From an uncultured Candidatus Saccharibacteria bacterium (lineage in GTDB: Bacteria; Patescibacteriota; Minisyncoccia; UBA6257; 1-14-0-10-44-23), in assembly GCA_964549935.1 (NCBI GenBank), contig CAZJVT010000001.1:91922-155921 (forward strand): DNA of 64,000 nt. Direction: 5' to 3'. The first letter of the stretch is position 1. Every line of letters begins with the position of its first letter. The translations under genes and the position numbers were made by a program. Below the pieces are notes generated by a model, which worked only from the letters and a program-made list of their open reading frames with translations, was not told the origin of the DNA and made no database searches. Shown here one piece after another: positions 7,097 through 59,666 of this stretch.

Positions 7097-7116
7097 ATAT
7101 CTCATATATGATATAT
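7097..7116. promoter_or_regulatory. Near-palindromic operator-like site ATATcTCATATATGAtATAT (variant of ATATCATATATGATAT)
   Basis: Read directly; there is one mismatched pair. It is the first of two sites upstream of the HTH-murA gene. Confidence 0.45.
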
Positions 7117-7179: not shown

Positions 7180-7199
7180 TTATATCATATATGATATAA
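7180..7199. promoter_or_regulatory. Perfect 20-bp palindrome TTATATCATATATGATATAA (core ATATCATATATGATAT)
   Basis: Read directly. The same 16-bp core recurs at 19244, 37947 and (as a variant) 7097. Confidence 0.5.
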
Positions 7200-19242: not shown

Positions 19243-19260
19243 TATATCATATATGATATA
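19243..19260. promoter_or_regulatory. Palindrome TATATCATATATGATATA (third copy of the ATATCATATATGATAT site), overlapping the start codon of the next ORF
   Basis: Read directly. Confidence 0.45.
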
Positions 19261-34395: not shown

Positions 34396-34764
34396 ATGCG
34401 CCCCTTTACTGAAGAAAGGCCCTGGGGGAGTTTTCGGCGTTTTACGGATGGCGAACCCGTAACTGTTAAGATTTTGCGCGTAAAGCCGGGTCAGGCTTTC
34501 AGTTTGCAGTATCACGAGGGTCGTGAGGAGTTTTGGCATATTGTGAGCGGCTCGCCAATGGTGACTTGCGGCGAAAAGGTGATTACGGCAAAACCCGGCG
34601 ACGAATTTACGATTCCGGTTAAAACGCTACACAGGATACAGGCCGGTGGCGAGGAGGCGGTCATTCTTGAGATCTCCTCGGGCACGTTTGACGAGAGCGA
34701 CATTGTCCGGGTTGCAGATCAATACGGTCGTGTCGGGACACGTCCGGAAAATAAAAAAGAGTGA
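34396..34764 (+). CDS. Cupin-domain protein resembling the C-terminal cupin of type II phosphomannose isomerase
   Basis: Cupin motifs (G..FSLQYHEGREEFWHIVSG and PGDEFTIP..LHRI). The ORF-track start at 34339 is less likely than MRPFTEE. Confidence 0.55.
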   Translation: MRPFTEERPWGSFRRFTDGEPVTVKILRVKPGQAFSLQYHEGREEFWHIVSGSPMVTCGEKVITAKPGDEFTIPVKTLHRIQAGGEEAVILEISSGTFDESDIVRVADQYGRVGTRPENKKE

Positions 34765-35912
34765 AGTCTATGGCTACGCGCGCAAAAACAAAGGCAAAAA
34801 AAGTAACGAGCAAGCCTTCTGTGCGCCGAGTTGTAAAACAAAAAACAACCCGCAAAGTTGTCGCGCGTAAAACAACGAAAAAATCTTCCGGGTCCGGCTA
34901 TGTTAAAACCGAATCCTGGTTACAACGTTCTCATACGAATCCGATTTTGACGCCAAGTGAGCAACACTGGGAGTCTCGGGCGACCTTTAACCCGGCTGCC
35001 GCGATGCATGATGATAAGGTGCATATGTTGTATCGCGCCGTCGGCGCGGATGACCGATCTGTACTTGGTTATGCGGCGAGTGATGACGGTTTCAGCGTGC
35101 ACCACCGCAGCTCGGTGCCGGTATACGGAAGTAATCTGCAGCAGCCTTCCGGTGTCACCATTAAGATTCCGTATAGCTCCGGCGGGGGAACAAACGGCGG
35201 CTGTGAGGACCCGCGTATGACGATTATCGGCAGTAGAGCTTACCTTATTTACACCTCATTTGATGGATGGGGTTCGCTGCGACTGGCGATGAGTTCTATC
35301 AGTCTCGCAGATTTTATTAAGCAGAAGTGGAATTGGAAACAGCCGGTGATGATCTCGCCACCCGGGCAGATTCACAAAAACTGGGTTTTGTTCCCCGAGA
35401 AGATTAACGGGCAGTACGCACTCTTGCATAGTATCTCGCCGGAGATACAGATAGTGTATTTTGATGATCTCAATCACTTAGACGGTGCACATTTTGTGCA
35501 AAGTGCGTATCGGCCCGGCACGCCTCGCAAGGGCGCCTGGGACAGCTGGGTGCGCGGGGCCGGTCCGCCACCGATGAAGACAAAGTACGGTTGGCTGCTT
35601 TTGTATCACGCCATGGATTTTCGTGACCCGAATCGTTACAAGCTCGGCGCGATGCTGCTCGACCTCAAAGATCCGACGAAGATTTTGTATCGTGCGCAGG
35701 AACCGATTTTAGAGCCGGATGAGTGGTATGAGAATCACGGATTTAAATCCGGCGTTGTTTACTCGTGCGGCGCCGTGATTAAAGATGGTCAGTTGCTTGT
35801 ATACTATGGAGGAGCGGATACGGTCGTTTGCGTGGCCGCCGCGCCGATTGATTGGTTTTTGGAGCAGTTGCTTGCCAAGGGAAGCCCGAAGCTAACTATG
35901 CAAACAAAGTAA
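34761..35912 (+). CDS. GH130-family glycoside phosphorylase (DUF377, beta-1,4-mannoside phosphorylase-like) with a 45-aa Lys-rich N-terminal tail
   Basis: NPILTP...RATFNPAA...DKVHMLYRA and later 5-bladed propeller motifs typical of GH130. The start is a GTG overlapping the upstream stop, with an alternative ATG at 34770. The N-terminus ATRAKTKAKKVTSKPSVRRVVKQKTTRKVVARKTTKK is histone-H1-like. Confidence 0.7.
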   Translation: MKSMATRAKTKAKKVTSKPSVRRVVKQKTTRKVVARKTTKKSSGSGYVKTESWLQRSHTNPILTPSEQHWESRATFNPAAAMHDDKVHMLYRAVGADDRSVLGYAASDDGFSVHHRSSVPVYGSNLQQPSGVTIKIPYSSGGGTNGGCEDPRMTIIGSRAYLIYTSFDGWGSLRLAMSSISLADFIKQKWNWKQPVMISPPGQIHKNWVLFPEKINGQYALLHSISPEIQIVYFDDLNHLDGAHFVQSAYRPGTPRKGAWDSWVRGAGPPPMKTKYGWLLLYHAMDFRDPNRYKLGAMLLDLKDPTKILYRAQEPILEPDEWYENHGFKSGVVYSCGAVIKDGQLLVYYGGADTVVCVAAAPIDWFLEQLLAKGSPKLTMQTK

Positions 35913-35913
35913 A

Positions 35914-37845
35914 ATGGCGATTTCGTTTAAGCGTTCAGATGAAAATCCGGTTCTAGTGCCACGCGTGGATATTTTATGGGAGGCGCAGGGGGCTTTTAAC
36001 GGATGTCCGGTCAAAGACGGCAAAACGATTCATTTAGTATATCGGGCCAACGCCGTTAACCGTGACGTGCACGGTGCGCGGATGAGTTTGCCGACGATTG
36101 GTTACGCAAAAAGCACCGACGGCGTGCACTTTTCGGATCGCCAGCAACTGATTACACCGACGGAGGAGTGGGAGATGTATGGCTGCGAGGACCCGCGCGT
36201 CACAAAAATGGGCGATACGTTTTATATTTTTTATACCGCGCTTAGTAAGTATCCGTTTCGCGCCGACGGCATCAGAGTCGCCGTCGCCACCACCAAGGAT
36301 TTCAAAAAGATTTTAAGCAAGCACCTGGTCACGCCGTTTAACGCCAAGGCGATGGCACTGTTTCCGGAAAAGGTAAACGGCAAATATGCGGCGCTTTTAA
36401 CCGTGCATACCGATATGCCACCGGCCTCTATCGCGCTGGCTTACTTTGATCGTCTCGAAGACATCTGGTCAGAGGACTACTGGCACGCTTGGTATAACTC
36501 GCTTTCTGCGCATACGGTTTCGCTCCGCCGCGGTCACAGTGACCATATGGAGGTTGGCGCTGTGCCGATTAAAACAACGAAAGGGTGGCTCTTTTTGTAT
36601 TCTTATATCGAGAACTACTTCTCACCACCGGCGACATTTGGTGTGCATGCCGCACTGCTCGACTTAAAGAATCCGACTAAGATTATCGGTCGTTCGACCG
36701 AGCCGATGATTGTGCCGAAAGAGGAGTACGAGCACTTTGGCAACGTTCCGGATATCACGTTTCCCTCCGGCGCGCTGGTTAAGGGAAGTTCGCTTGTTTT
36801 GTATTACGGTGCCGCGGATACCACTACCTGTATCGCCAGTCTGCCGCTCGCTGATGTTTTAGAAGACCTGCTGCAGCCGCGCCAGCGCGTGGCGCAGCTG
36901 CAGCGCTTTGCCGGGAATCCGATTTTGCGTCCGGAGCCGAGTCATCCGTGGGAGGCAAAGGCGGTTTTTAATCCGGCGGCTTTGTATCTCGAAGGCAAGG
37001 TGCACCTTTTGTACCGCGCCTCATCAAACGACAATACCTCAGTCTTCGGTTACGCTTCGAGTAAAGACGGGTTTACGATTGATGAGCGATTGCCGGATCC
37101 GGTTTACGTACCGCGCCTGCCGTTTGAGCAAAAAATGGTTGCCGGCGGTAACTCCGGCTGCGAGGACCCGCGGCTCACTATCATCGATGATGTGATTTAT
37201 ATGCTCTACACAGCTTTTGACGGCCGAAGTCTGCCACACGTCGCACTTACCACCATTTTAGTCTCCGACTTCTTGGCCAAGCGCTGGAAGTGGGCGACTC
37301 CGGTTTTAATTTCTAAACTGGATCAGGACGACAAGGACGCCGCGATTTTCCCAAAGAAGTTTGGTGGCAAGTACGCCGTCTTTCACCGTATCGACGGGAA
37401 GATCTGGCTGGACTTCGTCGACAAGCTCTACGGCATTTGGAACAAGCCGCTTGATGGGCGAGTCATTATGGAGCCGCGCAGCACGCAGCACGACAGTCGC
37501 AAGATTGGTATCGCCGGTGTTCCTATCGAGACTCCGGACGGTTGGGTTTTGATTTATCACGGCGTTTCGCGCCGCGAGGACCACCACTACCACCTGCGCG
37601 CGGCGCTGCTCGACAAAAACGACCCGACCAAAGTGCTTGCCCGTACCCGCGATGAAATTTTAGATACCGAAACACCCTACGAGCGCTACGGGGTAGTTCC
37701 CAATGTCGTGTTTTCCTGCGGCCACGTCGTCAAAAATGGCCAACTGATTGTCTACTACGGCGCGGCTGATACGGTTGTTGGCGTCGCCTCAATGCCGCTT
37801 AGCGAGCTCGTACAGAAGCTCAAGAGCGAAAAGGGTAGTGCGTAA
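35914..37845 (+). CDS. Tandem double GH130 glycoside phosphorylase domains in one 643-aa protein
   Basis: Two repeats of the NPVL/NPIL...FN..A...GK.HL.YRA...GYA.S.DG...CEDPR pattern, around residues 1-320 and 330-643. Confidence 0.75.
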   Translation: MAISFKRSDENPVLVPRVDILWEAQGAFNGCPVKDGKTIHLVYRANAVNRDVHGARMSLPTIGYAKSTDGVHFSDRQQLITPTEEWEMYGCEDPRVTKMGDTFYIFYTALSKYPFRADGIRVAVATTKDFKKILSKHLVTPFNAKAMALFPEKVNGKYAALLTVHTDMPPASIALAYFDRLEDIWSEDYWHAWYNSLSAHTVSLRRGHSDHMEVGAVPIKTTKGWLFLYSYIENYFSPPATFGVHAALLDLKNPTKIIGRSTEPMIVPKEEYEHFGNVPDITFPSGALVKGSSLVLYYGAADTTTCIASLPLADVLEDLLQPRQRVAQLQRFAGNPILRPEPSHPWEAKAVFNPAALYLEGKVHLLYRASSNDNTSVFGYASSKDGFTIDERLPDPVYVPRLPFEQKMVAGGNSGCEDPRLTIIDDVIYMLYTAFDGRSLPHVALTTILVSDFLAKRWKWATPVLISKLDQDDKDAAIFPKKFGGKYAVFHRIDGKIWLDFVDKLYGIWNKPLDGRVIMEPRSTQHDSRKIGIAGVPIETPDGWVLIYHGVSRREDHHYHLRAALLDKNDPTKVLARTRDEILDTETPYERYGVVPNVVFSCGHVVKNGQLIVYYGAADTVVGVASMPLSELVQKLKSEKGSA

Positions 37846-37944: not shown

Positions 37945-37964
37945 ATATATCATATATGATATAT
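37945..37964. promoter_or_regulatory. Perfect 20-bp palindrome ATATATCATATATGATATAT (fourth copy of the ATATCATATATGATAT site)
   Basis: Read directly. It lies between the convergent GH130 gene and msrA. Confidence 0.45.
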
Positions 37965-45285: not shown

Positions 45286-45553
45286 TTTGGGGCCCTTTTT
45301 GGACGGTATACTTAAGGAGAACTTCGCGAAAGTTCTTAGTCTCCTGATCAGAGACTTACCGTCGATAATTAACCGCGTTACTCAATACCAGTAGTGCGCG
45401 CAAGACTCACAAATCTAAAATTATGGACACAGTCAAAGCATTAGTAGGAGGCTCGGGTAAGCCGCAGCCGGGACAGCCGATGCCGCCGAGCCAGCCAATG
45501 GGAGGACACTAAGAATCTTACAAAAACCCGCCAAACAGGCGGGTTTTTGGTTG

Positions 45554-45586
45554 CAACGGCTCAACGAGCCGCCGTTGAGCCGTGAG
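45554..45586. repeat. Dispersed palindromic intergenic element, copy 1 (CAACGGCTCAACGAGCCGCCGTTGAGCCGTGAG)
   Basis: Inverted repeat CGGCTCAACG/CGTTGAGCCG. Related copies lie at 49215, 54473 and 59692. Confidence 0.7.
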
Positions 45587-48172: not shown

Positions 48173-49213
48173 ATGTATCAACCCCAAACCTACACCGTCG
48201 AAAGCGTTACAAACGGCCACCCAGACAAAGTCTGCGATCAAATCAGCGATGCAATTTTAGACGCGCTGCTTACCCAGGATCCTTTAAGCCGCGTCGCCGT
48301 CGAGACCTTTGGCGGGCACGACCTCTTAGTCATTGGCGGCGAGGTCACGACCCGGGCCAAAGTGAATTACGAAAAAATCGCCCGCAGCGTCTACCGCGAG
48401 ATTGGTTACGACGACAAGGCACTCAAAGTCATCGTCCACGTCGTGCAGCAGTCGCCGGATATCGCCATGGGCGTAGATACCGGTGGTGCCGGCGACCAGG
48501 GGATTATGTACGGCTACGCGACAAATGAGACGCCGGAGTTACTCCCGCGCGCCGTCGTGCTGGTACACAAGCTGGCCCAGGGCCTCGAAAAGCTGCGCAC
48601 GAGTAAAAAATTGAAGTGGTTAAAGCCCGACGGCAAGACGCAGATTTCTGTCCACAACGGCAAGATTACTTCGGTACTCGTAAGCACCCAGCATGATGCC
48701 GCCGTCTCGCAGGAGCAGCTGCGCGCGGATTTACTTAAGCATTTGATTACGCCGATAATCGGGGACCTCGCTGGCATCGAGGTGCTGACCAATCCGACCG
48801 GGCTGTTTGTCCAGGGCGGCTTTTCGGCGGACACGGGGCTCACAGGGCGCAAGATTATGGTGGACACGTATTGCGGCTTAGCCCCGCACGGTGGCGGAGC
48901 CTTCTCCGGCAAGGACGCGACCAAGGTAGACCGCAGTGCGGCGTATATGTGTCGCCACGTCGCCAAGTGGCTGGTCAAAAAGGGGTATGCCAAACAGGCT
49001 CTCGTTTCGGTATCGTACGCCATTGGCCGCGCCGAACCGCTGATGATCGAGGCGATCAACGAAAAAGGCAGGTCGCTCGCGTCAGTGGTCAAAAAGAACT
49101 TCGACTTCAAACCGAAGGCGATTATAGACAAGCTCGGCCTAAGAAAGCCCGTCTTTCGCCAAACGGCAGCTTACGGCCACTTCGGGAAGCGGGGCCTAAG
49201 TTGGGAGAAATAA
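48173..49213 (+). CDS. metK: S-adenosylmethionine synthetase
   Basis: GHPDKVCDQISDAILDA, GGGAFSGKDATKVDRS and related MetK motifs. Confidence 0.9.
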   Translation: MYQPQTYTVESVTNGHPDKVCDQISDAILDALLTQDPLSRVAVETFGGHDLLVIGGEVTTRAKVNYEKIARSVYREIGYDDKALKVIVHVVQQSPDIAMGVDTGGAGDQGIMYGYATNETPELLPRAVVLVHKLAQGLEKLRTSKKLKWLKPDGKTQISVHNGKITSVLVSTQHDAAVSQEQLRADLLKHLITPIIGDLAGIEVLTNPTGLFVQGGFSADTGLTGRKIMVDTYCGLAPHGGGAFSGKDATKVDRSAAYMCRHVAKWLVKKGYAKQALVSVSYAIGRAEPLMIEAINEKGRSLASVVKKNFDFKPKAIIDKLGLRKPVFRQTAAYGHFGKRGLSWEK

Positions 49214-49214
49214 C

Positions 49215-49249
49215 CTCAACGGCTCAACGGGCTACCGTTGAGCCGTTGA
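49215..49249. repeat. Dispersed palindromic intergenic element, copy 2 (CTCAACGGCTCAACGGGCTACCGTTGAGCCGTTGA), at the left border of the R-M island
   Basis: 15-bp perfect inverted repeat with a 4-nt loop. Confidence 0.75.
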
Positions 49250-49292: not shown

Positions 49293-50837
49293 ATGGCTAC
49301 ACTGAATTGGATCGGGAAAGATGCCGTTGTAAATCATGATAAGGAAGTGCCTTTTAAGCTTATTCAAAAGATACCGGGTAATTCCGTTGGTAAAGAGTCT
49401 AAGAATCTGATCATCCACGGGGACAACCTTGAGGCGCTCAAGGCGTTGATGCCTTTTTACAAAGACAAGATTAAGTGCATTTATATTGATCCTCCATACA
49501 ACACCGGGAGCGAGGAATGGGTCTACAACGATAAAGTCAATTCTCCGAAAATCCACGAATGGATAAAAAAAGTTGTAGGACGAGAAGGCGAAGATCTTAC
49601 ACGACACGATAAATGGCTTTGTATGATGTATCCTCGTCTCAAGCTTCTTCGAGATCTTTTGGCTGAAGACGGGGTGATATTCATATCAATTGACGACAAC
49701 GAGCATTCTAACTTGAAGCTCGTAATGGATGAAATTTTCCAAGCAAAGAATTTTGTCACTAATATTGTCTGGCAAAAATCTTATTCGCCAGTCAATCTAC
49801 GTAAGAATTTTTCTCCTAACCATGATTTCATCATAGTTTATGCGAAGAATATTTCTAGCTTAAAACTTAATCAACTGAGTCGGAGCGAAGAAGCGATCCA
49901 AAGATACAAGAATCCTGACAATGACTCAAGGGGGCCTTGGAAATCAACAGATCTTTCTGTGGGTCCAGCAGTAAAAGAAAATATTTATGAAATCCTTACC
50001 CCAAAAGGGCGGAGTATTTTGCCTCCCAAGGGCAGGAGTTGGGTGTTGAATAAAAAGAGATTTCAGGAATTTTTGAACGACAAGCGTATCTGGTTTGGGG
50101 CAAACGGCAATGCCGTTCCTTCAATTAAGAAATTTCTCTCAGAAGTCAAGCCGGGCGTAACTCCAATGACAGTTTGGACTTATCAAGAGGTCGGGCATAA
50201 TCAAGATGCGAAGCGAGAGGTAAAAGAGATCCTTGAGCAGGAGTCGCCGTTTGAGACGCCGAAACCCTTAGGTTTGCTAAGGCGGATTCTTGAGATAGGC
50301 ACATTGCCGAACGATATCATACTTGATTCTTTTGCTGGTTCTGGTACGACCGGCCAAGCAGTTTTGGGGCTCAATAAGGAGGACGGAGGGAATAGGCAGT
50401 TTATCTTGGTGGAGATGGAAGATAGGATTGCAAAAAGTGTCACAGCTGAAAGAATTAAAAGGGCAATTAAAAAGTACGAATACAAAGCAGGTTTTGAGTT
50501 CTGCGAACTCGCTAAGCCTCTATTCGATGCGCAAGGGCAAATCAATGAGAATTGCTCGTATGATGATCTGGCGACCTATATTTATTTCGCCGAAACTCAA
50601 ACAAATACTGAGAAGAAAAATATCAAGAAGCCATTAATCGGTGAAAGCCAGGGGGTTTTCTACTACCTTCTTTTTGCCGAAAAGGGCAAAAATGATCTTA
50701 CTCGCAGTGCGCTTACGAAACTTAAACTCAAGGGGCAGGCTGTCGTATATGCTGATCGCTGCCTTATTGACGAGGACGAACTTAAGGCGAAAGGAGTTAT
50801 CTTCAAGCAAATCCCATACGAGATAAAAGTTTATTAA
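49293..50837 (+). CDS. mod: Type III restriction-modification Mod-like N6-adenine DNA methyltransferase
   Basis: The DPPY catalytic motif (IYIDPPYNTG) precedes the FxGxG SAM-binding motif (FAGSGTTG), the beta-class order typical of Type III Mod. Confidence 0.8.
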   Translation: MATLNWIGKDAVVNHDKEVPFKLIQKIPGNSVGKESKNLIIHGDNLEALKALMPFYKDKIKCIYIDPPYNTGSEEWVYNDKVNSPKIHEWIKKVVGREGEDLTRHDKWLCMMYPRLKLLRDLLAEDGVIFISIDDNEHSNLKLVMDEIFQAKNFVTNIVWQKSYSPVNLRKNFSPNHDFIIVYAKNISSLKLNQLSRSEEAIQRYKNPDNDSRGPWKSTDLSVGPAVKENIYEILTPKGRSILPPKGRSWVLNKKRFQEFLNDKRIWFGANGNAVPSIKKFLSEVKPGVTPMTVWTYQEVGHNQDAKREVKEILEQESPFETPKPLGLLRRILEIGTLPNDIILDSFAGSGTTGQAVLGLNKEDGGNRQFILVEMEDRIAKSVTAERIKRAIKKYEYKAGFEFCELAKPLFDAQGQINENCSYDDLATYIYFAETQTNTEKKNIKKPLIGESQGVFYYLLFAEKGKNDLTRSALTKLKLKGQAVVYADRCLIDEDELKAKGVIFKQIPYEIKVY

Positions 50838-50841
50838 TTTC

Positions 50842-51417
50842 ATGTTGCAAAAATTATATAAAACCACGAATCCAAGCCTTTTATGGGAGATTCGGGAGAA
50901 CACGGCCGGATACGATTATGTTTATTCGGAGCCATTTTGCTCCAACGATTCATGTCGTGTGCCTTTAGATCAAGCTTATCTTGGGACTAATAAGACAGGT
51001 CAATATATAAGCGGTTGGCTTTGTTCAAATTGCAAAAAAGAATATGAGTGTCCCGGCAATGACTATCAATCATTCGTCCAATCAATCCAGAAAAAATACG
51101 AAGGCTTTATTCGGCAGCGTCATGAAATAATTTCATTAGATTTAATTCCTACAAAAGTAGCTGCTGGTGCCGAGGATGAGCATTTTTGGCTGCGGGCGCG
51201 GATATTAGAAAAAAATGGCAAAAGACAAGCCGTCATTTTCATAGGAGAAAAAATAAAAGGAAAGCAGGAAAAAACCGATTATGCCCAGCTATTTCTTGAC
51301 CTAGAAGATGAGCAGGTTCGTTTCGATAAAAATAATAAAAATCCGATGGGGTTACTTTGTAGGTTGACGGCTGAATTCGAAAATTCAAGTACCGCTCTTT
51401 CTAAGAAGGGTAATTAA
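50842..51417 (+). CDS. Hypothetical Cys-rich (zinc-ribbon-like) protein encoded between mod and res
   Basis: CSNDSC...CSNCKKEYEC four-Cys cluster. It has 5-nt gaps to both neighbours and a low GC like the flanking R-M genes. Confidence 0.5.
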   Translation: MLQKLYKTTNPSLLWEIRENTAGYDYVYSEPFCSNDSCRVPLDQAYLGTNKTGQYISGWLCSNCKKEYECPGNDYQSFVQSIQKKYEGFIRQRHEIISLDLIPTKVAAGAEDEHFWLRARILEKNGKRQAVIFIGEKIKGKQEKTDYAQLFLDLEDEQVRFDKNNKNPMGLLCRLTAEFENSSTALSKKGN

Positions 51418-51422
51418 TAGAT

Positions 51423-53699
51423 ATGAAGCTAAAGAACTATCAGCAAAACGCTATAGATACGCTTGACCAGTTTTTGGTGCAGCTTAAGAAATTGAAGCCT
51501 CGCTATGCTTTCACCGAGGTAACCAACGAGCATTACAACCATGAATGGTTTGGCGATGTGCCGTTTGTCTGTATGCAAATGCCGACTGGTGCTGGTAAAA
51601 CCCTTGTGGCTTGTAAATCAGTCGAGCGGATTATGTCCACTATCCTGCAACACAAGATGGATACAGGCATCGTTATTTGGTTCGTGCCTTCAGATTCCAT
51701 TAAGACGCAGACGCTTAAAAAACTCCGAGACTCCAATGATTGGCACTACGAAATGATCAATGAGGCATTCGAGTCTAAGTTTAAGGTATTTTCTAATGAA
51801 GACGCTCTTTCGATGACGCGCGAGGATGTGCGGAACAATCTTTGCATTATAGTTGCTAGTCTTGATGCTTTCCGGAAGGAGGCCAAGATCCAAAACAAGT
51901 ATAAGGTGTACAAAGAGAATGGTGCATTAATGGATCATTTCCAGAATCTTAAGGATGATTCATCGCTCGAAAAAGATTCTGAGGGTACTGTCATCAACTC
52001 TCTCGCGAACGTTATCCGCAAGAACACTCCGCTGATCGTTATCGATGAGGGTCATCACACCCAAACCGAACTATCAGTGCAGTTTTTGGGCGACTTAAAA
52101 CCATCATTCATTATTGAATTCACGGCGACGCCGCGGGAAGGCAGTAATATCCTGGTGCATACGAACGCCTCCGAACTAAAAATCGAAGAGATGGTTAAGA
52201 TCCCGATCGTACTTGAAAGCCGCACGCAGTGGGAGCAGGTTGTCGCAGACGGTATTGCTAAGCGAGCTGAGCTAGAAAAGCGCGCTAGTAAGCTCAAAGG
52301 AGAGCGCATTCGCCCCATCGCATTGCTACAGGCCCAACCGAAGAGCAAGACAAAGGCAACGGTTACCGTGGAGGCGCTCAAGCAGATGCTTCTTGATAAA
52401 AAGATTCCTGAGGAGCAAATCAAGATTAAAACGTCGGAGCTCGACGAACTCGAGGGGATGGATCTCTTCGATAAGAAGTGTGAGGTGCGCTATATTTTGA
52501 CCGTAAATGCCCTTGCTGAGGGCTGGGACTGCTCTTTTGCTTATGTCCTTATCTCCGTTGCCAATCTTGGTGCTAAAGTTGCCGTTGAGCAAATCATTGG
52601 GCGCGTTATCCGTATGCCGAACGCGAAGCGCAAGGCGGACGAAGCTCTGAACCGTAGCTACGTGTTTGCTTCTGCTGCGAATTTTAATGACGCCGCCAGT
52701 AAAGTAATTAAGGGGCTTGAGGATAACGGATATAGCCGCAGTGATTTTATTGGCGCAGACAAAGAACAAGAATATACTGATCCGTTTGAGACAAAGAAGG
52801 CAATCAAGAAGAAACTCGCGGTGCCCCTGATGGCAATTGGCAAAAACAAGCTTTCATTCGAAGATCTTCTCGGAGAGGATTTTGAGCTCGCAAAGCAGAA
52901 TCCCGATTTTGATTTTCGGTTCCATTACGACCTTGACGGCCAAGCTACGATTGACATTAGCGAGGATAATGAATGGCTACGGGACAAGCAGCTCTCGCTC
53001 CCGTATCAATACCTCGAAGGCAATCATTCGGTCGACGAACTCGTGATGTGGCTTGATAAGAAGCTGCGTTTTCCGATGTTGAAACCGGGAGATAAGATTA
53101 CTTTTATTGCCAAAGCTGTCGATAGCCAAATCCAGAAGCGCCAACTTTCACTCCCTAAGCTGTCTGTTAATCGCTATTTATTTGCCGAACGTCTTTCAGA
53201 TGTAATCAATAATTTACTGGAGAGCTTTACTAAGAAAGCATGCGCCGGCCTTCTTGCGGAAAAGAAATTAATCGTCGCGACTTTCGAGGAATTCCCGTCT
53301 ACTATCGCGCTCAAGTCTCCTGTTCCCAAGGTATTCAATAAAAACCTATATGAGCGAGTTGATGCTATCAATGGAGAGGAACGTGGCTTTGTTGAGCGAA
53401 TTGATTTGGGCGCTCTCGAGAACATTGATTTCTGGGTTCGCAACCGTGAAAAAGTTGACCCCTTTTATATCCAAGGATGGAAGCGAGGTAAATTTTACCC
53501 CGATTTTATTGCGGTTACTAACAAAGGAGCCATTATTGCCTTAGAATGGAAAGGCGAAGATAGATTAGACAATCCAGATACGCTTTACAAAACAGAGATT
53601 GCTGAGAATTGGGCCAAGTTGGGTAAAGGCAAGCTTCACTTTTTCTTGGTTCACAGCAAGAACGTTGATGAGGTTCTAGAAAAAGTCAAAAAACTTTAA
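51423..53699 (+). CDS. res: Type III restriction enzyme Res-like subunit (SF2 helicase plus a C-terminal PD-(D/E)xK nuclease)
   Basis: Walker A MPTGAGKT, DEAH-box VIDEGHH and a C-terminal YPDF...ALEWKG nuclease motif. Confidence 0.8.
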   Translation: MKLKNYQQNAIDTLDQFLVQLKKLKPRYAFTEVTNEHYNHEWFGDVPFVCMQMPTGAGKTLVACKSVERIMSTILQHKMDTGIVIWFVPSDSIKTQTLKKLRDSNDWHYEMINEAFESKFKVFSNEDALSMTREDVRNNLCIIVASLDAFRKEAKIQNKYKVYKENGALMDHFQNLKDDSSLEKDSEGTVINSLANVIRKNTPLIVIDEGHHTQTELSVQFLGDLKPSFIIEFTATPREGSNILVHTNASELKIEEMVKIPIVLESRTQWEQVVADGIAKRAELEKRASKLKGERIRPIALLQAQPKSKTKATVTVEALKQMLLDKKIPEEQIKIKTSELDELEGMDLFDKKCEVRYILTVNALAEGWDCSFAYVLISVANLGAKVAVEQIIGRVIRMPNAKRKADEALNRSYVFASAANFNDAASKVIKGLEDNGYSRSDFIGADKEQEYTDPFETKKAIKKKLAVPLMAIGKNKLSFEDLLGEDFELAKQNPDFDFRFHYDLDGQATIDISEDNEWLRDKQLSLPYQYLEGNHSVDELVMWLDKKLRFPMLKPGDKITFIAKAVDSQIQKRQLSLPKLSVNRYLFAERLSDVINNLLESFTKKACAGLLAEKKLIVATFEEFPSTIALKSPVPKVFNKNLYERVDAINGEERGFVERIDLGALENIDFWVRNREKVDPFYIQGWKRGKFYPDFIAVTNKGAIIALEWKGEDRLDNPDTLYKTEIAENWAKLGKGKLHFFLVHSKNVDEVLEKVKKL

Positions 53700-53703
53700 T
53701 TTT

Positions 53704-54168
53704 ATGAATATTGATTTTTCACGGAAATTGATCAAAGGCAGAATCGCTGAAGTTATTTTTGAGCAAATGATCCGGGAAGAGGAGCGATATACTGTGATTC
53801 CATTTGGGTATGAGCACACGATGCCGACTTTATCGCAGTATCGTGCCATAGCTGAAGTTCCTAAAATCATCGACAACATTGCAGATGCGCCGGACTTTGC
53901 TTTGGTGTCTGAGGATAAAACGAAGATCTACTTGGTAGAAGTTAAATATCAAAAGAATTTCGATATAGAAAAAGTGAAAGAATGCGCGGCGAAATTGCGC
54001 GGGCGCTGGGAATATCCGTGGCTTTTTATCGCAACTCCACAGAGATTTTATTGCGGAATGGCGCAGGATATTCTTCGAGAAGGGAGTATCCACGAATTAT
54101 CGGAGAATTGGGTTAATAAAGACCGCCAACTCGCATATTTGAAATTACTAAACGAATTCGAAAAATAA
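53704..54168 (+). CDS. Hypothetical protein with a possible PD-(D/E)xK nuclease-like motif (PDFALV...YLVEVKY)
   Basis: Its motif pattern resembles that of the Res C-terminus. It is 5 nt downstream of res. Confidence 0.4.
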   Translation: MNIDFSRKLIKGRIAEVIFEQMIREEERYTVIPFGYEHTMPTLSQYRAIAEVPKIIDNIADAPDFALVSEDKTKIYLVEVKYQKNFDIEKVKECAAKLRGRWEYPWLFIATPQRFYCGMAQDILREGSIHELSENWVNKDRQLAYLKLLNEFEK

Positions 54169-54173
54169 TCTTC

Positions 54174-54470
54174 ATGACTCCAATTACATACTTCATACTC
54201 GGACTGGTGGTGGGTGGGGTGGTGCTTCTTTTGTGGTTGCGGCGTAGCAAGACCGGGCTCATCGCCCGGCAGCAGGGCGAGAAGGCCGCGCACAAGCAGG
54301 CCATCATCGCTGCCTTTGCCGGAAAGGGCCAACTGACCAACGACGAGGTCCAAAAGCTGCTTGGGGTTAGTGATGCAACCGCGACGAGGTATATGGATGA
54401 GCTCGAAAAGGAGGGCAAAGTGAAGCAGGTAGGCCCAACCGGCCAAAACGTATACTACGAGAGGATTTAA
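54174..54470 (+). CDS. Small membrane-anchored winged-helix DNA-binding protein
   Basis: An N-terminal TM segment (ITYFILGLVVGGVVLLLWL) is followed by an HTH (LTNDEVQKLLGVSDATATRYMDELEKEGKV). Confidence 0.45.
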   Translation: MTPITYFILGLVVGGVVLLLWLRRSKTGLIARQQGEKAAHKQAIIAAFAGKGQLTNDEVQKLLGVSDATATRYMDELEKEGKVKQVGPTGQNVYYERI

Positions 54471-54472
54471 GG

Positions 54473-54510
54473 CCTCAACGGCTCAACGGGACGCCGTTGA
54501 GCCGTTGAAG
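54473..54510. repeat. Dispersed palindromic intergenic element, copy 3 (CTCAACGGCTCAACGGGACGCCGTTGAGCCGTTGAAG), at the right border of the R-M island
   Basis: The same 15-16-bp inverted repeat as copy 2. Confidence 0.75.
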
Positions 54511-54584
54511 GTTTTGGACCGGGAAAAAGGACTGGAAGTGCCCCATAACTTGCATAGCGCATTCGGGCGAGGGATAATAGTGTT

Positions 54585-55364
54585 ATGAAAGAGAAATTTG
54601 ATTCGCACAAGGATTTTACTGACCAGGAGCTTGATCCGGCGAATATCTTTGTGGAGTCGGTGATAAAGGGAAGAATTGGCTATTGCGCCGATTTCATTTC
54701 GAAGGCAACGTATGAGCGTCTTTTCGATCGGCTGCCAGTACACGGTACTAAAATGCTGGACATTGGTGCGGGCGCTATGCCGTTAGTACAAGTGCGCGGT
54801 GGTGCCGGTACGTATTTAGAGGCCCTTGAAGACAGAGGCGCAACTGTGATCCCGGTTGAGCGTCGCACTTTGCCGATCCATACGTGGAAGCCGATGCGTG
54901 GCGAAACTGAACCATTTGGTGAGACTCGAGCCATGCCTGTACAAGCAGATGCGAATGCGCTTCCATTCAAAGCTGCTTCAGTAGAGGGCGCAATCTCCGT
55001 CAATTACATTAATTCTTTCGAAAAGAAGGCCAAGGAGTCGGTTAAGAATTTTTTGCAGGAGGTGTATCGCACCTTGAAGCCCAAAGGGTTCCTGATTATC
55101 AGCACTTTCGGATACACCTGCTCTATATCGTCGAAGGGGGAGATGACGGTTAACAACAGAATACCGTTTAATGAGTTCGTAACCGCAAAAATGGTCAAAG
55201 AGCTCGCGGCGGAAGTCGGTTTCACGAGCAGTGAAGATATACCTTTAGACAAGCAAGATATTGATCGGTCACGGGCAAAATGGTTGGAAGATGATCAGCG
55301 CCAAGGGAAAGATGTGACGGGGATACTGATGGAGGAGCCGATTGGTTTGTTGCTCAGAAAGTAA
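54585..55364 (+). CDS. Class I SAM-dependent methyltransferase
   Basis: Motif I MLDIGAGAMP and a Rossmann-like layout. Confidence 0.65.
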   Translation: MKEKFDSHKDFTDQELDPANIFVESVIKGRIGYCADFISKATYERLFDRLPVHGTKMLDIGAGAMPLVQVRGGAGTYLEALEDRGATVIPVERRTLPIHTWKPMRGETEPFGETRAMPVQADANALPFKAASVEGAISVNYINSFEKKAKESVKNFLQEVYRTLKPKGFLIISTFGYTCSISSKGEMTVNNRIPFNEFVTAKMVKELAAEVGFTSSEDIPLDKQDIDRSRAKWLEDDQRQGKDVTGILMEEPIGLLLRK

Positions 55365-55413
55365 CCCGGCCCACCATCTCCGCTTATTAATTCTCTACCG
55401 TCCTATTCTCTAA

Positions 55414-55442
55414 TTCGCGCGAATAGGTAAATAGGGTATACT
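55414..55442. promoter_or_regulatory. 29-bp operator-like motif TATTCTCTAATTCGCGCGAATAGGTAAAT, copy 1, containing the perfect palindrome ATTCGCGCGAAT; overlaps the arsR-family promoter
   Basis: Identical copies at 55800-55828 and 56323-56351. A TATACT -10 lies 4 nt downstream. Confidence 0.55.
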
Positions 55443-55481
55443 AGAATTAAAGTTAAAGTGAAAGCAAAAAAAGCGAAAGAT

Positions 55482-55748
55482 ATGGACCTCAAGGATCTCG
55501 AAAAGATACACAAAGCACTTGCAAACCGGCGCCGCCTCGCGATCTTAAAGCATTTGAAGCGGCGCCCGGGCGCGACCGTCGGCAGTTTGGCGGAGGCAAT
55601 TTCGCTTTCATTTAAATCGACCTCCAAGCACATGATTATTCTTTCGGCGGTCGGCCTCGTCGAGCGGGAACAGGTGAATTTGAATATGCGATACCGACTT
55701 GCCGGTACGTTGCCGCCAACCGCAAAAGCCGCGATCGAAATTCTCTAG
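55482..55748 (+). CDS. ArsR/SmtB-family metalloregulatory-type HTH transcriptional regulator
   Basis: LANRRRLAILKHL...ATVGSLAEAISLS.KSTSKHM wHTH pattern. An alternative GTG start is at 55458. Confidence 0.7.
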   Translation: MDLKDLEKIHKALANRRRLAILKHLKRRPGATVGSLAEAISLSFKSTSKHMIILSAVGLVEREQVNLNMRYRLAGTLPPTAKAAIEIL

Positions 55749-55799
55749 GCCTCGAGTTCTCTAGTTTTTCATTTTTTACCAACCCAACTCGCGCTGTCT

Positions 55800-55828
55800 T
55801 ATTCTCTAATTCGCGCGAATAGGTAAAT
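55800..55828. promoter_or_regulatory. 29-bp operator-like motif, copy 2
   Basis: Identical to copy 1; upstream of the secreted-protein gene. Confidence 0.55.
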
Positions 55829-55860
55829 GGCTCCAATAAGTAATGTGGCGAGGTGGGGGT

Positions 55861-56271
55861 ATGATAGTATTACGGCATATGCAGAAAGTGTTTTTAATTG
55901 CTTTCGTCAGCGTGCTCGTTGTAATCGGAACGGCCGGTTTTGTGCAGCGTGCTGATGCGGCCGCGAGCTCTCTGCCGCGCTATGTGGGTTCGCGGGTGAC
56001 CTACTACGCGACGTTGGCGCGGTTTTCTGGGAGTGGGGATATGCGGTTTCGCTGGCGCAATTCGAATGACTGGTTCTTTGCTTTGCCTAAAGACGTTCCG
56101 TTTGATGAAGCGGCGACTGATCGCTGGGTAAACTTTATTGCTGACAACGCCGGAGCGCTTTTTAAAATTACCGGTACGCGCGAAGAAAACGACTGTTCTT
56201 ATTATACGCAACCAATGCGCTGCATCGTCTCTGTTAACATCGACAAGATCACTCCGATTGCGGCCCGTTAA
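55861..56271 (+). CDS. Small secreted hypothetical protein (signal peptide, Cys pair)
   Basis: ORF with the signal peptide MQKVFLIAFVSVLVVIGTAGFVQRADA. In-frame alternative starts are at 55843, 55861 and 55879. Confidence 0.45.
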   Translation: MIVLRHMQKVFLIAFVSVLVVIGTAGFVQRADAAASSLPRYVGSRVTYYATLARFSGSGDMRFRWRNSNDWFFALPKDVPFDEAATDRWVNFIADNAGALFKITGTREENDCSYYTQPMRCIVSVNIDKITPIAAR

Positions 56272-56322
56272 TTCTAAGCGAGTCAAACTTTCGCTATTCA
56301 ACACCATTTTTAGTAGGAGTAG

Positions 56323-56351
56323 TGAGTTTTTTCTATTCTCTAATTCGCGCG
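56323..56351. promoter_or_regulatory. 29-bp operator-like motif, copy 3
   Basis: Identical to copy 1; upstream of the cupin gene. Confidence 0.55.
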
Positions 56352-56495
56352 AATAGGTAAATGGACTTGGGGGCCAACTCCTGCCTTCCGGTCTTTGGTT
56401 TTCTTTTCCTTGTTATCCTTTCCATTCTCATACGGCTTATGGGTATGGGGATGCTACTTAGTACCAAATATGGGTTTAAGGGCGAGATCGAAAAG

Positions 56496-56885
56496 ATGAC
56501 CCTGGAAAATAAAGATTTTCGCCGGGTTATTTATACCGCGGCGCACTGCCAAATTGTTTTAATGTCACTCGCACCCAGTGAGGATATCGGATTTGAAATT
56601 CATAAGACGGGGGATCAGTTTTTTCGCTTTGAGTCGGGGGATGGGCGCGTCGTAATCAACGGTCACGAGTACACCGTTGCCGCCGGTGAGGCCGTCGTGG
56701 TTCCCGCGGGGGCGCGGCACAACGTTACGAATGCCTCTGCGACTGAACCACTTAAGATGTATACCATTTACGCTCCGCCGCATCATCGCGACGGCGTCGT
56801 GCACCAATCAAAAGCCGCCGCGCAGGCGGACAAAGAAAGTTTCGACGGGCAGGTGAGCGGGGCGGCTCCCAGGGCTGTTGTTTAA
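56496..56885 (+). CDS. Cupin-domain protein
   Basis: Conserved cupin pattern (G..F.FESGDGRVVINGHEY.V..GEAVVVPAG..HNV.N). The hydrophobic extension from the ORF-track start at 56361 is probably not coding. Confidence 0.55.
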   Translation: MTLENKDFRRVIYTAAHCQIVLMSLAPSEDIGFEIHKTGDQFFRFESGDGRVVINGHEYTVAAGEAVVVPAGARHNVTNASATEPLKMYTIYAPPHHRDGVVHQSKAAAQADKESFDGQVSGAAPRAVV

Positions 56886-56888
56886 TCA

Positions 56889-57512
56889 GTGTGTTACTCT
56901 AAAAGTATGAAACGATTTTTTACCATTGCCGCGGTCGTTATCGTCCTTGGTGGAGCGTATCTTTATTTTGCCCAGCCGGTAGTGCCACAGCCGGGCGGTT
57001 CTTTGACTGAAGCACAGGCGCGAGTCATCGCCGAGAACTCCTGTATCAAAGGCGGAGCGGCGCTCGAGGCGGGCCAATATAATGCGGTTACAAAAACCTG
57101 GCGGTATAGTGCGAATTTAAATGCGACGCGGCCCAGTTGTACGCCTGCCTGTGTTGTGAGCGAGGCACAGGGGACGGCGGCCGTCGCATGGGAGTGTACG
57201 GAGGTCAATCAAGCGGATAGTATCGACGGTGATACGGTTATCGTCGCCGGCAAAGTGGTTGCTATTAATCTTGAGCAGGCGATGGTGGACGGGCCGTATC
57301 TGATCACCTTAGAATCTGCGAAAAGTAAAAAGTATACCGTCGCTGTCCCGGCGCGCGGGTTTACGATGTGCGTTGCCAATCAAAGCAATTCAGTTGCTGA
57401 TGTTTCCCAGATTAAAACCGGTGAGCAGTATGAGGTACGGGGAAGCGTGAACGCGAATGGCTACATCATGCCCTGTGAGTCAGCAGATCATTACTTGCGG
57501 TTGGTGCGGTAG
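56889..57512 (+). CDS. Secreted hypothetical protein with several Cys residues
   Basis: ORF with signal peptide. Confidence 0.45.
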   Translation: MCYSKSMKRFFTIAAVVIVLGGAYLYFAQPVVPQPGGSLTEAQARVIAENSCIKGGAALEAGQYNAVTKTWRYSANLNATRPSCTPACVVSEAQGTAAVAWECTEVNQADSIDGDTVIVAGKVVAINLEQAMVDGPYLITLESAKSKKYTVAVPARGFTMCVANQSNSVADVSQIKTGEQYEVRGSVNANGYIMPCESADHYLRLVR

Positions 57513-57534
57513 AGGATTTTAAAGCGACGGGCGG

Positions 57535-58380
57535 TTACCGAAAGCTACTGACAAACTGCAACGGGTCCACCGAGACGCCGTTTATTTTTATCGAGAGGTG
57601 CAGGTGCGGGGCGCTGGCCAGGCCGGTTTCGCCGAGCGTGCCAACTATGGCGCCTTTGGAAACCGTTTCGCCGGTTGCGACTCGTAGCGTGTCGAGGTGG
57701 AGGTAGAGGCTGTAGATGCCTCGGCCGTGATTAATAATCACAGAGTTGCCGTAGACCGAGTCGAGGTAGGCTTTGGCGACGAGGCCGTCATTAATTGCCG
57801 CGACCGGTGTGCCTTTGGGTAGATCGAAGTCGGTGCCGAGGTGGGTGATTTTTTCTGTTCCTGTTTTGCGAGTCTCGCCGAAGCGGCTGGAGATTTTGTT
57901 ATCAGTCAGAGGAAGGGCGAAGGGCGCGCCAAAGAGCGTCGTCCCGGTTATGGTTTTTACGAAGCTGTTGATGCTGGAGTTAGTGACGGCGAGATTTTGG
58001 ACCAGCTGCTTGGGCGTTTGGTTGAGCTTGGGCGGCACGGGGAGATTGATGACGTTTGGCGTGAAGCGGGTGATGCGAAACGTTTTGGTGACGCTGAGAG
58101 GCTCGCCCGTGGTACTCCTTAGGGTTTTAAACTGCGTTACGAGTTTGACTGAGCCGGTATAGGCGCCGAGTGAAAACGGGACGACCAGTCGCCAGCCGTT
58201 TTGATACGGGAATGGGGTAAGTGCATTTTTGCCCAGCGTGACTTTGGTCGGCTGCTCGTCGAAGGCGACGATGAGGGTCTGCCCCTGCTGCACGGTCGGC
58301 GTGACGAGGTCCACCGTCGCGGCGTGGGCCGGCAGGGTCATAGCGAGCAGAAGGCCGGTTATGAGAAGAAGTTTACGCAT
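57535..58380 (-). CDS. M23-family (LytM-like) peptidoglycan endopeptidase with signal peptide
   Basis: HLGTDF and HLHLSI zinc-ligand motifs. Confidence 0.85.
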   Translation of the reverse strand: MRKLLLITGLLLAMTLPAHAATVDLVTPTVQQGQTLIVAFDEQPTKVTLGKNALTPFPYQNGWRLVVPFSLGAYTGSVKLVTQFKTLRSTTGEPLSVTKTFRITRFTPNVINLPVPPKLNQTPKQLVQNLAVTNSSINSFVKTITGTTLFGAPFALPLTDNKISSRFGETRKTGTEKITHLGTDFDLPKGTPVAAINDGLVAKAYLDSVYGNSVIINHGRGIYSLYLHLDTLRVATGETVSKGAIVGTLGETGLASAPHLHLSIKINGVSVDPLQFVSSFR

Positions 58381-58499
58381 AGGTGCCTGTTAAGTATAAG
58401 ACGAGCAGCGAGGCCGGATGTTACTAGAGCTTTGTTATAAAGTTGAATGTCGCACGTCTAATACGGTAGAGTAAGGTAGTAACCAAAGTAATTTATCGT

Positions 58500-59666
58500 A
58501 TGAAAATTAAATTTTTGAACGTGGCGACGCTGGTTGTATTAGTCATCGCAATTGCCGGGGCCTGGTGGTATGGCACGCGGCACAACGCGACCTGGACGAG
58601 CATCACGACCTTTGAGCAGTGTGCACAGCTTTACCCAGTGATGGAGAGCTACCCGGAGCAGTGTGCCACGCCGGATGGGCGTAGTTTTGTGCGCGACATT
58701 AGTAATGACATGCAAAACTTGATTCAAGTTAGTTATCCGCAGCCAAATGCGCCGGTCGCTAGTCCGCTGACTGTCACCGGGCAGGCGCGCGGCAACTTTT
58801 ACTTCGAAGCCAGCTTTCCCGTAAAACTCTTGGATGCAAACGGCGCCGTTTTAGCGCAGGTGCCGGCGCAGGCCCAGGGGGAGTGGATGACGGAGGAGTT
58901 TGTCCCATTTAAAGCCTCGCTCAACTTCAAAACGCCAACGACGAAGACCGGTGTGTTAGTTTTACAAAACGACAATCCGTCCGGCGATCCGGCTAAGAGT
59001 AAGGAGCTCCGAATTCCGGTGCAGTTTGGTGAGTCGGGAGTTGTGAAGTTTGGCCAGAAATTTACTCTAACGACGGGTGATACTGTGTTTTTGCCGGATG
59101 ACTTAGAGGTGAAATTAGCTGAAATTACAGACTCACGCTGCAAGCCTGGTGTCCAGTGTATTTGGGCGGGAGAATTATCGCCGCTTTTATGGGTTACGCG
59201 AAACGGAGCGACGCCATCGCCGCTGAAAGATGTTCAGCTTGGCACGCTTGATCATAAGGTTGTTTATTACGATACCTATTCGTTTACATTAGTTGAAGCG
59301 ACTGAGACGAGCGCGACTATCATTGCAGACGTTGCGGCCCAGGGGAAAGGCGGGAGTGGGGTTGTCGGATATGTTCATGTCGGGCCGACCTGCCCGGTTG
59401 GAAAAAATCCTCCGGATCCGAAATGTGCCGACAAGCCGGCGGCGAATATTGAGGTTGTGTTTACGAAAGTTGGAGGGGCAGTTGCAGCTCGGGTTGATAG
59501 TACAGAGCAGGGGCACATTCGCGTTGCCCTGCCGGCAGGCTCTTATGTCGTGACCGCAGTTTCGCCAGCTAATAACCAGCTGCCGCGGTGCGAGACAAAA
59601 ACGATTGCGCTCAAAACAGGTGAGCTGCAGGCTCTTGATATCAGCTGCGACAGCGGAATTCGGTAA
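58500..59666 (+). CDS. Secreted hypothetical protein (N-terminal anchor, beta-rich)
   Basis: ORF only. Confidence 0.45.
   Translation: MKIKFLNVATLVVLVIAIAGAWWYGTRHNATWTSITTFEQCAQLYPVMESYPEQCATPDGRSFVRDISNDMQNLIQVSYPQPNAPVASPLTVTGQARGNFYFEASFPVKLLDANGAVLAQVPAQAQGEWMTEEFVPFKASLNFKTPTTKTGVLVLQNDNPSGDPAKSKELRIPVQFGESGVVKFGQKFTLTTGDTVFLPDDLEVKLAEITDSRCKPGVQCIWAGELSPLLWVTRNGATPSPLKDVQLGTLDHKVVYYDTYSFTLVEATETSATIIADVAAQGKGGSGVVGYVHVGPTCPVGKNPPDPKCADKPAANIEVVFTKVGGAVAARVDSTEQGHIRVALPAGSYVVTAVSPANNQLPRCETKTIALKTGELQALDISCDSGIR

Follow-up and report, generated by a model that had tools for sequence, protein, structure and literature searches.

Members of the ArsR/SmtB family are winged-helix proteins, and its classical members bind an inverted-repeat operator of ~26-30 bp at their own promoter, negative autoregulation being the norm in the family. 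NolR, PagR and YgaV each control a defined regulon in a particular bacterial group, and we know of none among them with operators that bracket its gene or with sites identical over their full length. A further relative, HlyU of Vibrio, is an obligate dimer that binds the 17-bp imperfect palindrome TAATTCAGACTAAATTA (TAATTC-N5-AAATTA) and protects ~35 bp of DNA (PMC4330345). In this work we describe a candidate regulator of this family, 88 amino acids (aa) in length, and a 29-bp element, TATTCTCTAATTCGCGCGAATAGGTAAAT, that occurs three times around its gene, in a 64,000-nucleotide (nt) stretch of DNA (hereafter the window; positions 91,922 to 155,921 of contig CAZJVT010000001.1) from an uncultured Candidatus Saccharibacteria bacterium. 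The explanation that we favour, with reasonable rather than high confidence, is that the element is the operator of the 88-aa protein, which is encoded between copies 1 and 2 and would repress its own gene together with the adjacent units. For the Candidate Phyla Radiation (CPR, or Patescibacteria), to which this organism belongs, almost nothing is known, to our knowledge, about the regulation of transcription.

The first-pass annotation of the window had reported three identical 29-bp copies, which exact matching bears out (29/29, 0 mismatches); its coordinate 55800 was right, and the copies it had placed at 55414 and 56323 lie ~10 nt away, at 55404 and 56334. No match to the 29-mer was obtained in 100 dinucleotide-preserving shuffles, and none would be expected by chance. 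The three copies and the gene enclosed by the first two are as follows:

55404 to 55432, + strand: site 1, a 29-bp quasi-palindromic candidate operator/promoter element (exact match; equivalent upstream site in 77/80 homologous loci)
55483 to 55748, + strand: gene for the 88-aa ArsR/SmtB-family winged-helix regulator without sensor residues (Pfam HTH_20 and HTH_5; AlphaFold2)
55800 to 55828, + strand: site 2, the 29-mer 3' of the regulator gene and 5' of a gene for a 136-aa protein (exact match; equivalent downstream site in 71/80 loci)
56334 to 56362, + strand: site 3, the 29-mer 5' of a cupin gene (exact match)

The gaps separating the copies, of 367 and 505 bp, are filled by coding genes. 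Identity among the copies ends abruptly at both edges and the flanks are unalignable; two extra bases (GG) are common to copies 2 and 3, and the repeat extends to 33 nt if one or two mismatches are allowed. The entire 29-mer is a quasi-palindrome, with GTAAAT as its right arm in the window, and its core, ATTCGCGCGAAT (55413-55424 in site 1), is indeed the perfect 12-bp palindrome that had been described. Beyond the three sites, the 64-kb window holds no copy of ATTCGCGCGAAT at up to two mismatches, and a relaxed scan for ATTCG-NN-CGAAT with at most one mismatch gave a single extra match, at 2514, against a chance expectation of ~2.

The association between element and regulator was examined in 80 metagenome loci picked by similarity of the regulator protein alone. 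These are the best 80 of at least 567 confirmed relatives, biased to close relatives of the alignment, and they represent 72 distinct site sets; gene starts were set by a simple longest open reading frame (ORF) rule, all loci here and below are metagenome-assembled genome (MAG) or metagenome contigs, and the analysis is wholly computational. The strict core (at most one mismatch) was found within 150 nt upstream of the regulator gene in 55/80 loci, downstream in 56/80 and on both sides in 48/80, with just 27 sites elsewhere in the 464 kb of these loci (chance expectation ~1 by our own arithmetic). All but one of the 17 apparent exceptions, a truncated locus, have a site with another centre (ATTCG-TA/AT/AA/GC/CA-CGAAT), and the pattern ATTCG-NN-CGAAT, sought within 160 nt upstream of the gene, raises the counts to 77/80 upstream, 71/80 downstream and 69/80 on both sides. 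Since these loci were chosen through the protein and nearly all of them carry both sites, we read the element as a probable autoregulated operator. Sites number 14.6 per 10 kb up to 0.5 kb from the regulator gene, 0.96 between 0.5 and 2 kb and 0.1 at larger distances, a fall of about 150-fold, which supports the same reading, already proposed by the first-pass annotation, and suggests that the regulon is mostly local, comprising the regulator, its neighbour and often one to four further adjacent units. Extra sites before the next one to four genes are frequent (L013, L022, L064, L076, L086, L094 and L095), some loci contain additional site-ArsR paralogue units, and remote sites may perhaps number ~10 per megabase by extrapolation.

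The element can also be followed without reference to the protein. When one genome per species was searched for exact copies of the central 20-mer, 10 loci were returned, where we calculate that ~1 match would be expected by chance in that genome collection; the hosts are MAGs of Saccharibacteria, Campbellbacteria, Kerfeldbacteria, Staskawiczbacteria and Paceibacterota, together with two contigs of one MAG labelled Gammaproteobacteria. At six of the 10 loci the 20-mer lies 7-70 nt ahead of a start codon and points to the gene, the genes including rarA, folD, a dTDP-glucose dehydratase-like gene and a pRiA4b-like gene (assigned by sequence); the other four have no ORF behind the motif, L002 having a tRNA gene ~250 nt downstream. 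In L004 and L009 the site is followed by a homologue of the 88-aa regulator, a second site and then a different gene, flavoprotein-like in L004 and seryl-tRNA-synthetase-like in L009. L009 also contains a fully symmetric 30-mer, TATTTACCTATTCGCGCGAATAGGTAAATA, from which the left arm of the window element departs at four positions.

The genes that stand behind the sites are of many kinds. By Pfam and cluster assignment they encode a PilB-type ATPase, a UvrD/PD-(D/E)XK helicase-nuclease, a class I aminoacyl-tRNA synthetase, S-adenosylhomocysteine (AdoHcy) hydrolase, pyruvate phosphate dikinase, a DEAD-box helicase, a TraG-like protein, a pseudouridine synthase, methyltransferases, proteins of the HAD, NUDIX, CYTH, PP2C, GNAT, Fic, NYN, LysE and GDSL families, several proteins without a Pfam match and extra ArsR paralogues; named genes include serS, ileS, folD, rarA, PPDK and pilB. 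None of the 40 Pfam-scanned genes behind sites encodes a cupin or a metal-handling protein, and the partner genes of the regulator appear arbitrary and functionally unrelated. Occurrence at many unrelated loci had been named beforehand as a sign of a generic dispersed repeat: the motif does occur in this way, in many CPR lineages, but it does so as what appears to be the conserved operator of one regulator.

A profile of 163 unique core-anchored sites reveals ~34 conserved base pairs, cTATTCTCTA-ATTCG-NN-CGAAT-rGnn-GAATAG, extending from -24 to +10. Both ATTCG half-sites are invariant while the centre dinucleotide is free, and the half-sites do not co-vary. Outside the core the element departs from symmetry: conservation is far stronger in the left flank TCTCTA than in its mirror image (154/163 sites have C at -14), and of the two outer arms it is the right one, GAATAG, that is the more conserved. 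The TCTA side lies upstream relative to the following gene in nearly all cases, with start codons typically ~25-60 nt past the element. At ~35 loci the TAA within cTAAttcg is the regulator's own stop codon, so that the last regulator codons are encoded by the left arm of the downstream operator. Additional left-arm sequences were also seen: L032 contains three tandem TCTCTAA units, and in the window the 3' end of the regulator gene (55740-55771) reads ATTCTCTAG, with another GTTCTCTAG 22 nt further on, ahead of site 2 (TATTCTCTAA...), copies that look like relic or duplicated operator left arms. On the right side of the core, a peak of -10-like hexamers starts 3 nt after the core in 26 sites, 19 of which read TGGTAGAAT (an extended -10 with TG), and a second, smaller peak lies 20 bp further downstream. 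From these features the element probably contains or overlaps a core promoter.

The 88-aa regulator, whose exact sequence was recovered as P0001 in the protein search, matches Pfam HTH_20 (31.2 bits, cut-off 27) and HTH_5 (24.1 bits, cut-off 22). It belongs to a tight family of 86-90 aa with 329 matches at E <= 1e-5, and with 430 clusters at 50% identity and E <= 1e-10 in a library of 1.84 billion proteins; as seen so far, this subfamily is confined to CPR/Patescibacteria. The recognition helix, LSFKSTSKHL, is nearly invariant across the family. An AlphaFold2 model with a mean predicted local distance difference test score (pLDDT) of 95.1 places helices at residues 3-27, 33-40, 44-56 and 79-87 and a beta hairpin at 60-73, which corresponds to a minimal ArsR/SmtB winged helix (alpha1-alpha2-alpha3-alphaR-beta-beta-alpha5). 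The top Foldseek matches of this model are YgaV, Mb0332, CzrA and HlyU, and these four, as well as NolR, SmtB, BigR and the centromere-binding AspA, are given by both Foldseek and a PDB profile search; CadC is also among the profile matches, and of the solved structures HlyU matches best in sequence (E = 1.4e-11). Cys is present in only 9 of 120 family members (6 of 50 aligned sequences) and is conserved at no position, the sole invariant His (H50) sits in the recognition helix, and neither alpha-3N or alpha-5 ligand sets nor BigR/SqrR-type Cys pairs were found among the 120 members. With no conserved Cys and the only invariant His in the recognition helix, the family has no known ArsR/SmtB metal, metalloid or thiol sensor site, and by sequence and predicted fold the regulator is a sensor-less ArsR/SmtB member to which HlyU is closest. 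The best-scoring family member in the 1.84-billion-protein library, P0228 (179 aa), is matched in two stretches, as would be expected of two regulator domains fused in tandem into a putative covalent pseudo-dimer.

Set beside the described systems, the regulator resembles HlyU, itself without a metal site, in its fold, in the TAATTC half-site and in the length of DNA involved (a ~35-bp footprint compared with ~34 bp conserved here). HlyU, however, uses a distal upstream palindrome and has a proposed Cys redox switch, whereas this family has no conserved Cys and its sites lie near start codons and bracket its own gene. With SmtB, CzrA, CadC and ArsR it shares the winged-helix fold and the Pfam families, as well as the classical likeness of an inverted-repeat operator ahead of its own gene; unlike these metalloregulators, with their 12-2-12 operators, it has no alpha-3N/alpha-5 site, is shorter at 86-90 aa and has targets that are not metal-related. 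Furthermore, two operators flank a monocistronic regulator gene here, whereas classical metalloregulators have one ahead of a resistance operon. NolR, PagR and YgaV, all of which are among the structural or sequence matches, are similar in being small ArsR-type proteins without a metal sensor that act on diverse genes. An ATTAG-containing NolR operator was considered as a further likeness; it was not verifiable, the one listed paper that names NolR in its abstract having the string only within a primer.

The mechanism that we propose combines these elements. The two-fold symmetric core is consistent with a dimer of the regulator, which most likely would read the TAATTC/GAATAG half-sites (centre-to-centre distance ~10 bp) in the manner of its relative HlyU. 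The element is co-directional with the next gene, lies near the start codon and has a -10-like right arm, features that together point to promoter overlap and repression, and the bound protein would thus block its own gene and adjacent transcription units. In the window the repressed units would be the ArsR gene, the 136-aa gene and the pair formed by the cupin gene and the gene for a 201-aa protein. No input signal is evident, and the protein is most simply read as a homeostatic negative autoregulator that would co-repress whatever adjoins its gene. Binding itself, the dimer stoichiometry, the choice of repression over activation and the promoter overlap are parts of this scheme that we infer from sequence.

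Several observations weigh against this scheme. Its support consists throughout of co-localisation in MAG and metagenome contigs. As promoters the sites are imperfect: most right arms (GCGAAT) are poor -10 boxes, the sequence at the -35 position (TATTCT/TTCTCT) is unlike TTGACA, and a sigma-70 scan of 54400-58600 calls no promoter at any of the three sites, its counts being at shuffle level. The -10-like peak 20 bp further on would set the palindrome near -41, an activator position, and HlyU, the nearest solved relative, is an activator. At L092, the downstream site faces a convergent PP2C gene, such that there is no gene for it to drive. Finally, the full-length identity of sites within a genome exceeds the needs of an ordinary operator.

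That identity extends to the sites of other genomes. Across 26 variable positions, within-locus similarity of sites is 0.571 versus 0.483 between loci (0 of 2000 permutations), and the centre dinucleotide is shared by 63% of within-locus pairs versus 34% between loci. Within the window's own clade the sites agree at 29/29 three times in the window, at 28-29/29 in L094 and at ~27/27 in L095, which has its own arm variant; the centre is CG in the window and L094 and TA in L092, L095, L096 and L097. L094 is the nearest relative, with a regulator 83% identical. Its regulator coding DNA is 73% identical to that of the window and the intergenic flanks are unalignable, yet the sites agree at up to 34/34, and recent duplication by itself therefore does not explain the identity in the window. 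The element is under constraint along its full length, and its copies within one genome all change together; the simplest explanation is a dual constraint from regulator and RNA polymerase with lineage-specific co-evolution.

The remaining genes of the array are listed here in the order in which they follow sites 2 and 3:

55861 to 56271, + strand: 136-aa near-orphan protein with an N-terminal signal-peptide-like segment (ORF list; NCBI start 55861)
56361 to 56885, + strand: Cupin_2 protein, 174 aa (longest ORF, identical to the NCBI call; Pfam Cupin_2, E = 2.4e-15)
56907 to 57512, + strand: 201-aa protein with an N-terminal membrane anchor or signal and a Cys-containing domain (ORF)

The positions confirm the earlier description of copies upstream of the ArsR-like gene, a small secreted protein and a cupin followed by a secreted Cys-containing protein, the signal peptide of the 136-aa protein and the signal- or anchor-like N-termini of two cargo proteins having been judged by eye. 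The distance from the end of the site to the ATG is 50 nt for site 1 and the regulator gene (55483) and 32 nt for site 2 and the 136-aa protein (55861), while site 3 overlaps the longest-ORF start of the cupin (56361) by 2 nt; translation of the cupin could equally well begin at in-frame ATGs at 56439-56451 or 56496. The 136-aa protein has no Pfam domain and just three homologues, all distant at 30% identity. The cupin retains the motif-2 His. The 201-aa protein has no Pfam match but has 99 homologues, aligned over approximately its first 33-50%, through an N-terminal Cys-containing domain common to CPR hypothetical proteins. Its gene starts 21 nt past the cupin gene, and because no site separates them the two are probably co-transcribed as one unit.

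None of the three cargo proteins has a homologue in the first 90 related loci. L094 has the same three-site array with a VF530 protein and an HI0933-like flavoprotein instead, and L092, whose regulator is 75% identical, has the two bracketing sites only; Gmad2, YgjP-like and M23 genes are common to L092 and the window. Recurrence of the cargo beside other regulators was confined to a domain-level match in L096, among the later-fetched relatives, where a 98-aa protein homologous to the N-terminal domain of the 201-aa protein is encoded at a distance of ~760 nt from the regulator, with no site ahead. As the cargo differs between loci, it is lineage-specific, and the reading of these genes as a functional module is unsupported.

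The window belongs to a 357,676-bp NCBI contig; it is chromosomal and carries four tRNA genes. Upstream of the array lie a methyltransferase and a Type III restriction-modification system (N6_N4 DNA methylase and Type III Res subunit, 49293-53699), and downstream a convergent M23 peptidase and a Gmad2 protein. Beside the array of L092 (3183-8234) are a methylase fused to LexA/S24 domains, an AAA_15/AAA_21 and DUF4435 protein, and Fic. Given these defence- or accessory-type neighbours, the arrays of the window and L092 may stand at the edge of a variable genomic region. Just 3' of the Type III restriction enzyme, a 154-aa protein (53704-54168) has a homologue in L061 (503-994; 34% identity over 76 aa, pairwise E = 1e-8), where a site precedes the ORF, which is positioned upstream of the regulator; neither protein has a Pfam domain. 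The 154-aa protein is followed by a 98-aa protein (54174-54470) that combines an N-terminal transmembrane segment with an HTH_24 winged helix; this protein is also encoded no more than a few kb from the ArsR-like gene in four further loci (L034/L035 10633-10839, L071 828-983 and L062 1-87) and may represent a weak second association with that gene.

Among other explanations of the array, we entertain tentatively that the element is a self-contained, portable promoter-plus-operator, through which neighbours of any kind are captured and site-gene arrays turn over, identity being maintained by copying or gene conversion together with selection. If this is true, streamlined CPR genomes would possess a sequence-specific system of their own for insulating and silencing neighbouring genes. 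An explanation that keeps the same protein-site pair and reverses its sign is activation, with the palindrome just upstream of a separate -10 in a class II-like arrangement (centre near -41) or with counter-silencing as in HlyU. A TATAAT-like hexamer peak starting 23 nt after the core, at 17 sites of which 11 have TG (e.g. L040, L051, L056 and L078), would suit such a position, as would the activating role of the closest solved relative. A good -10 at +23 is, however, missing from most sites, and in several of the +23 cases a Shine-Dalgarno-like AGGTG directly follows the hexamer, leaving no room for a transcription start; the negative autoregulation customary in ArsR/SmtB also counts against activation, which we regard as unlikely.

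Less probable still is that the element serves additionally as a substrate for recombination or homogenisation, with site-gene cassettes gained, lost or copied at the 29-34-bp repeat in an integron-like manner or through short-tract gene conversion. This would account for both the full-length identity of sites per genome and the differing genes between sites in close relatives: sites are more alike within than between loci (0.571 vs 0.483; 29/29 three times in the window, 28-29/29 in L094, ~27/27 in L095), and the window, L094 and L092 have Gmad2 and M23 genes in common on the flanks but different genes between their sites. The extra site-ArsR paralogue units of some loci and the tandem TCTCTAA units of L032 would fit as well. 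By analogy only, the array resembles chromosomal integron arrays (Vibrio VCR) in its co-directional small genes, near-identical palindromic repeats and content that varies between relatives. Unlike those arrays it has no integrase, and its repeats are 29-34 bp instead of 57-141 bp, lie upstream of genes, are promoter-like and are tied to a regulator. No integrase or recombinase was found near the array among the Pfam-scanned window neighbours or the L092 genes, the sites are much shorter than attC, polymorphism with breakpoints exactly at sites was not observed, and the presence of the same 29-mer in species whose regulators are only 83% identical argues for selection over recent copying.

We consider it improbable that the element works independently of the ArsR protein, be it as a consensus promoter that RNA polymerase reads unaided or as a hairpin in the transcript that serves as terminator or attenuator. 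In favour of such a role are the strict orientation with genes, the -10-like right arm and the position of the downstream copy at the 3' end of the regulator gene, whose stop codon it holds in ~35 loci. An invariant palindrome of two ATTCG half-sites around a free centre is, however, the signature of a protein dimer and not of a promoter spacer, and the ~150-fold concentration of sites is around one regulator gene. As for a hairpin, the folds of the three copies are no better than those of shuffles (z = -1.25, -1.11 and -0.04), the sites have no T-tract and no half-site covariation, and the 54400-58600 scan makes no terminator call there; Rfam reports tRNAs alone in the window and tRNAs with one tmRNA in the loci, with no family at the sites.

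The first-pass annotation had further suggested a metal- or redox-sensing ArsR repressor of a dedicated extracytoplasmic module formed by the secreted proteins and the cupin. In its favour are the family name and the HTH_5 match, the motif-2 His of the cupin, the signal- or anchor-like N-termini seen by eye in two cargo proteins and the L096 homologue ~760 nt from its regulator. This suggestion is contradicted at the family level, where Cys occurs unconserved in 9/120 members, no alpha-3N/alpha-5 ligand set is present and the partners elsewhere are unrelated housekeeping or accessory genes; the cargo is also missing from the first 90 related loci and from the nearest relatives L094 and L092, and we give the idea very little credence. 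A CRISPR array is rejected on its geometry (short regular spacers of ~30-40 bp between 28-37-bp repeats, against coding gaps of 367 and 505 bp here), REP/RAYT-type dispersed palindromes, which are orientation-independent and accompanied by a Y1 transposase, on the oriented sites clustered at an 88-aa winged-helix gene, a dif/Xer-like site (considered for the 28-29-bp length and TAAAT end) on the common orientation of all copies and their transcription-factor-type symmetry, and a phage-type promoter or phage origin on a degenerate 20-mer without match in a viral contig collection.

Three other repeats were observed in the window. An unrelated perfect 16-bp palindrome, ATATCATATATGATAT, occurs at 7182-7197, 19244-19259 and 37947-37962, with a variant at 7099-7114; two copies lie upstream of a gene (7386-8918) encoding an HTH_3 (XRE) domain fused to an EPSP-synthase/MurA-like domain, and one just ahead of a small multidrug-export protein gene (19253), such that it may be an operator of the XRE-domain protein. 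GC-rich hairpin repeats, CAACGGCTCAACGGG-N3-CCGTTGAGCCGTTG, at 45541-45583, 49204-49246 and 54463-54505 directly follow a META-domain gene, metK and the 98-aa HTH_24 gene, and look like shared terminators or REP-like elements; the third copy was not called by the simple terminator scan of 54400-58600. Lastly, a 59-nt segment occurs three times in 35199-37214 at ~980-nt spacing, 68-73% identical to the reference copy and within consecutive large ORFs (34761-37845), which suggests tandem paralogous genes or domains.

Returning to the operator that we propose, the autoregulated, palindrome-binding logic of the regulator is of a known kind. The full-text literature, subscription literature not being covered, yielded no description of this regulator, of its motif or of a resembling CPR transcription-factor/operator pair. 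As far as these searches show, what is new is a subfamily known to date from CPR lineages alone and the near-universal bracketing of its gene by two operators, often with the stop codon inside one of them, and likewise the oriented, promoter-like 34-bp element, the seemingly arbitrary targets and the full-length identity of sites within a genome. The findings also carry a caution for annotation, namely that an ArsR-family assignment does not equate to a metal sensor, nor a shared operator to a functional module. Together, this work identifies a concrete regulator-site pair that is widely conserved in several CPR lineages, and the candidate operator is long, well defined and easily recognised, which makes binding assays, the prediction of CPR regulons and the mapping of promoters in metatranscriptomes testable propositions.

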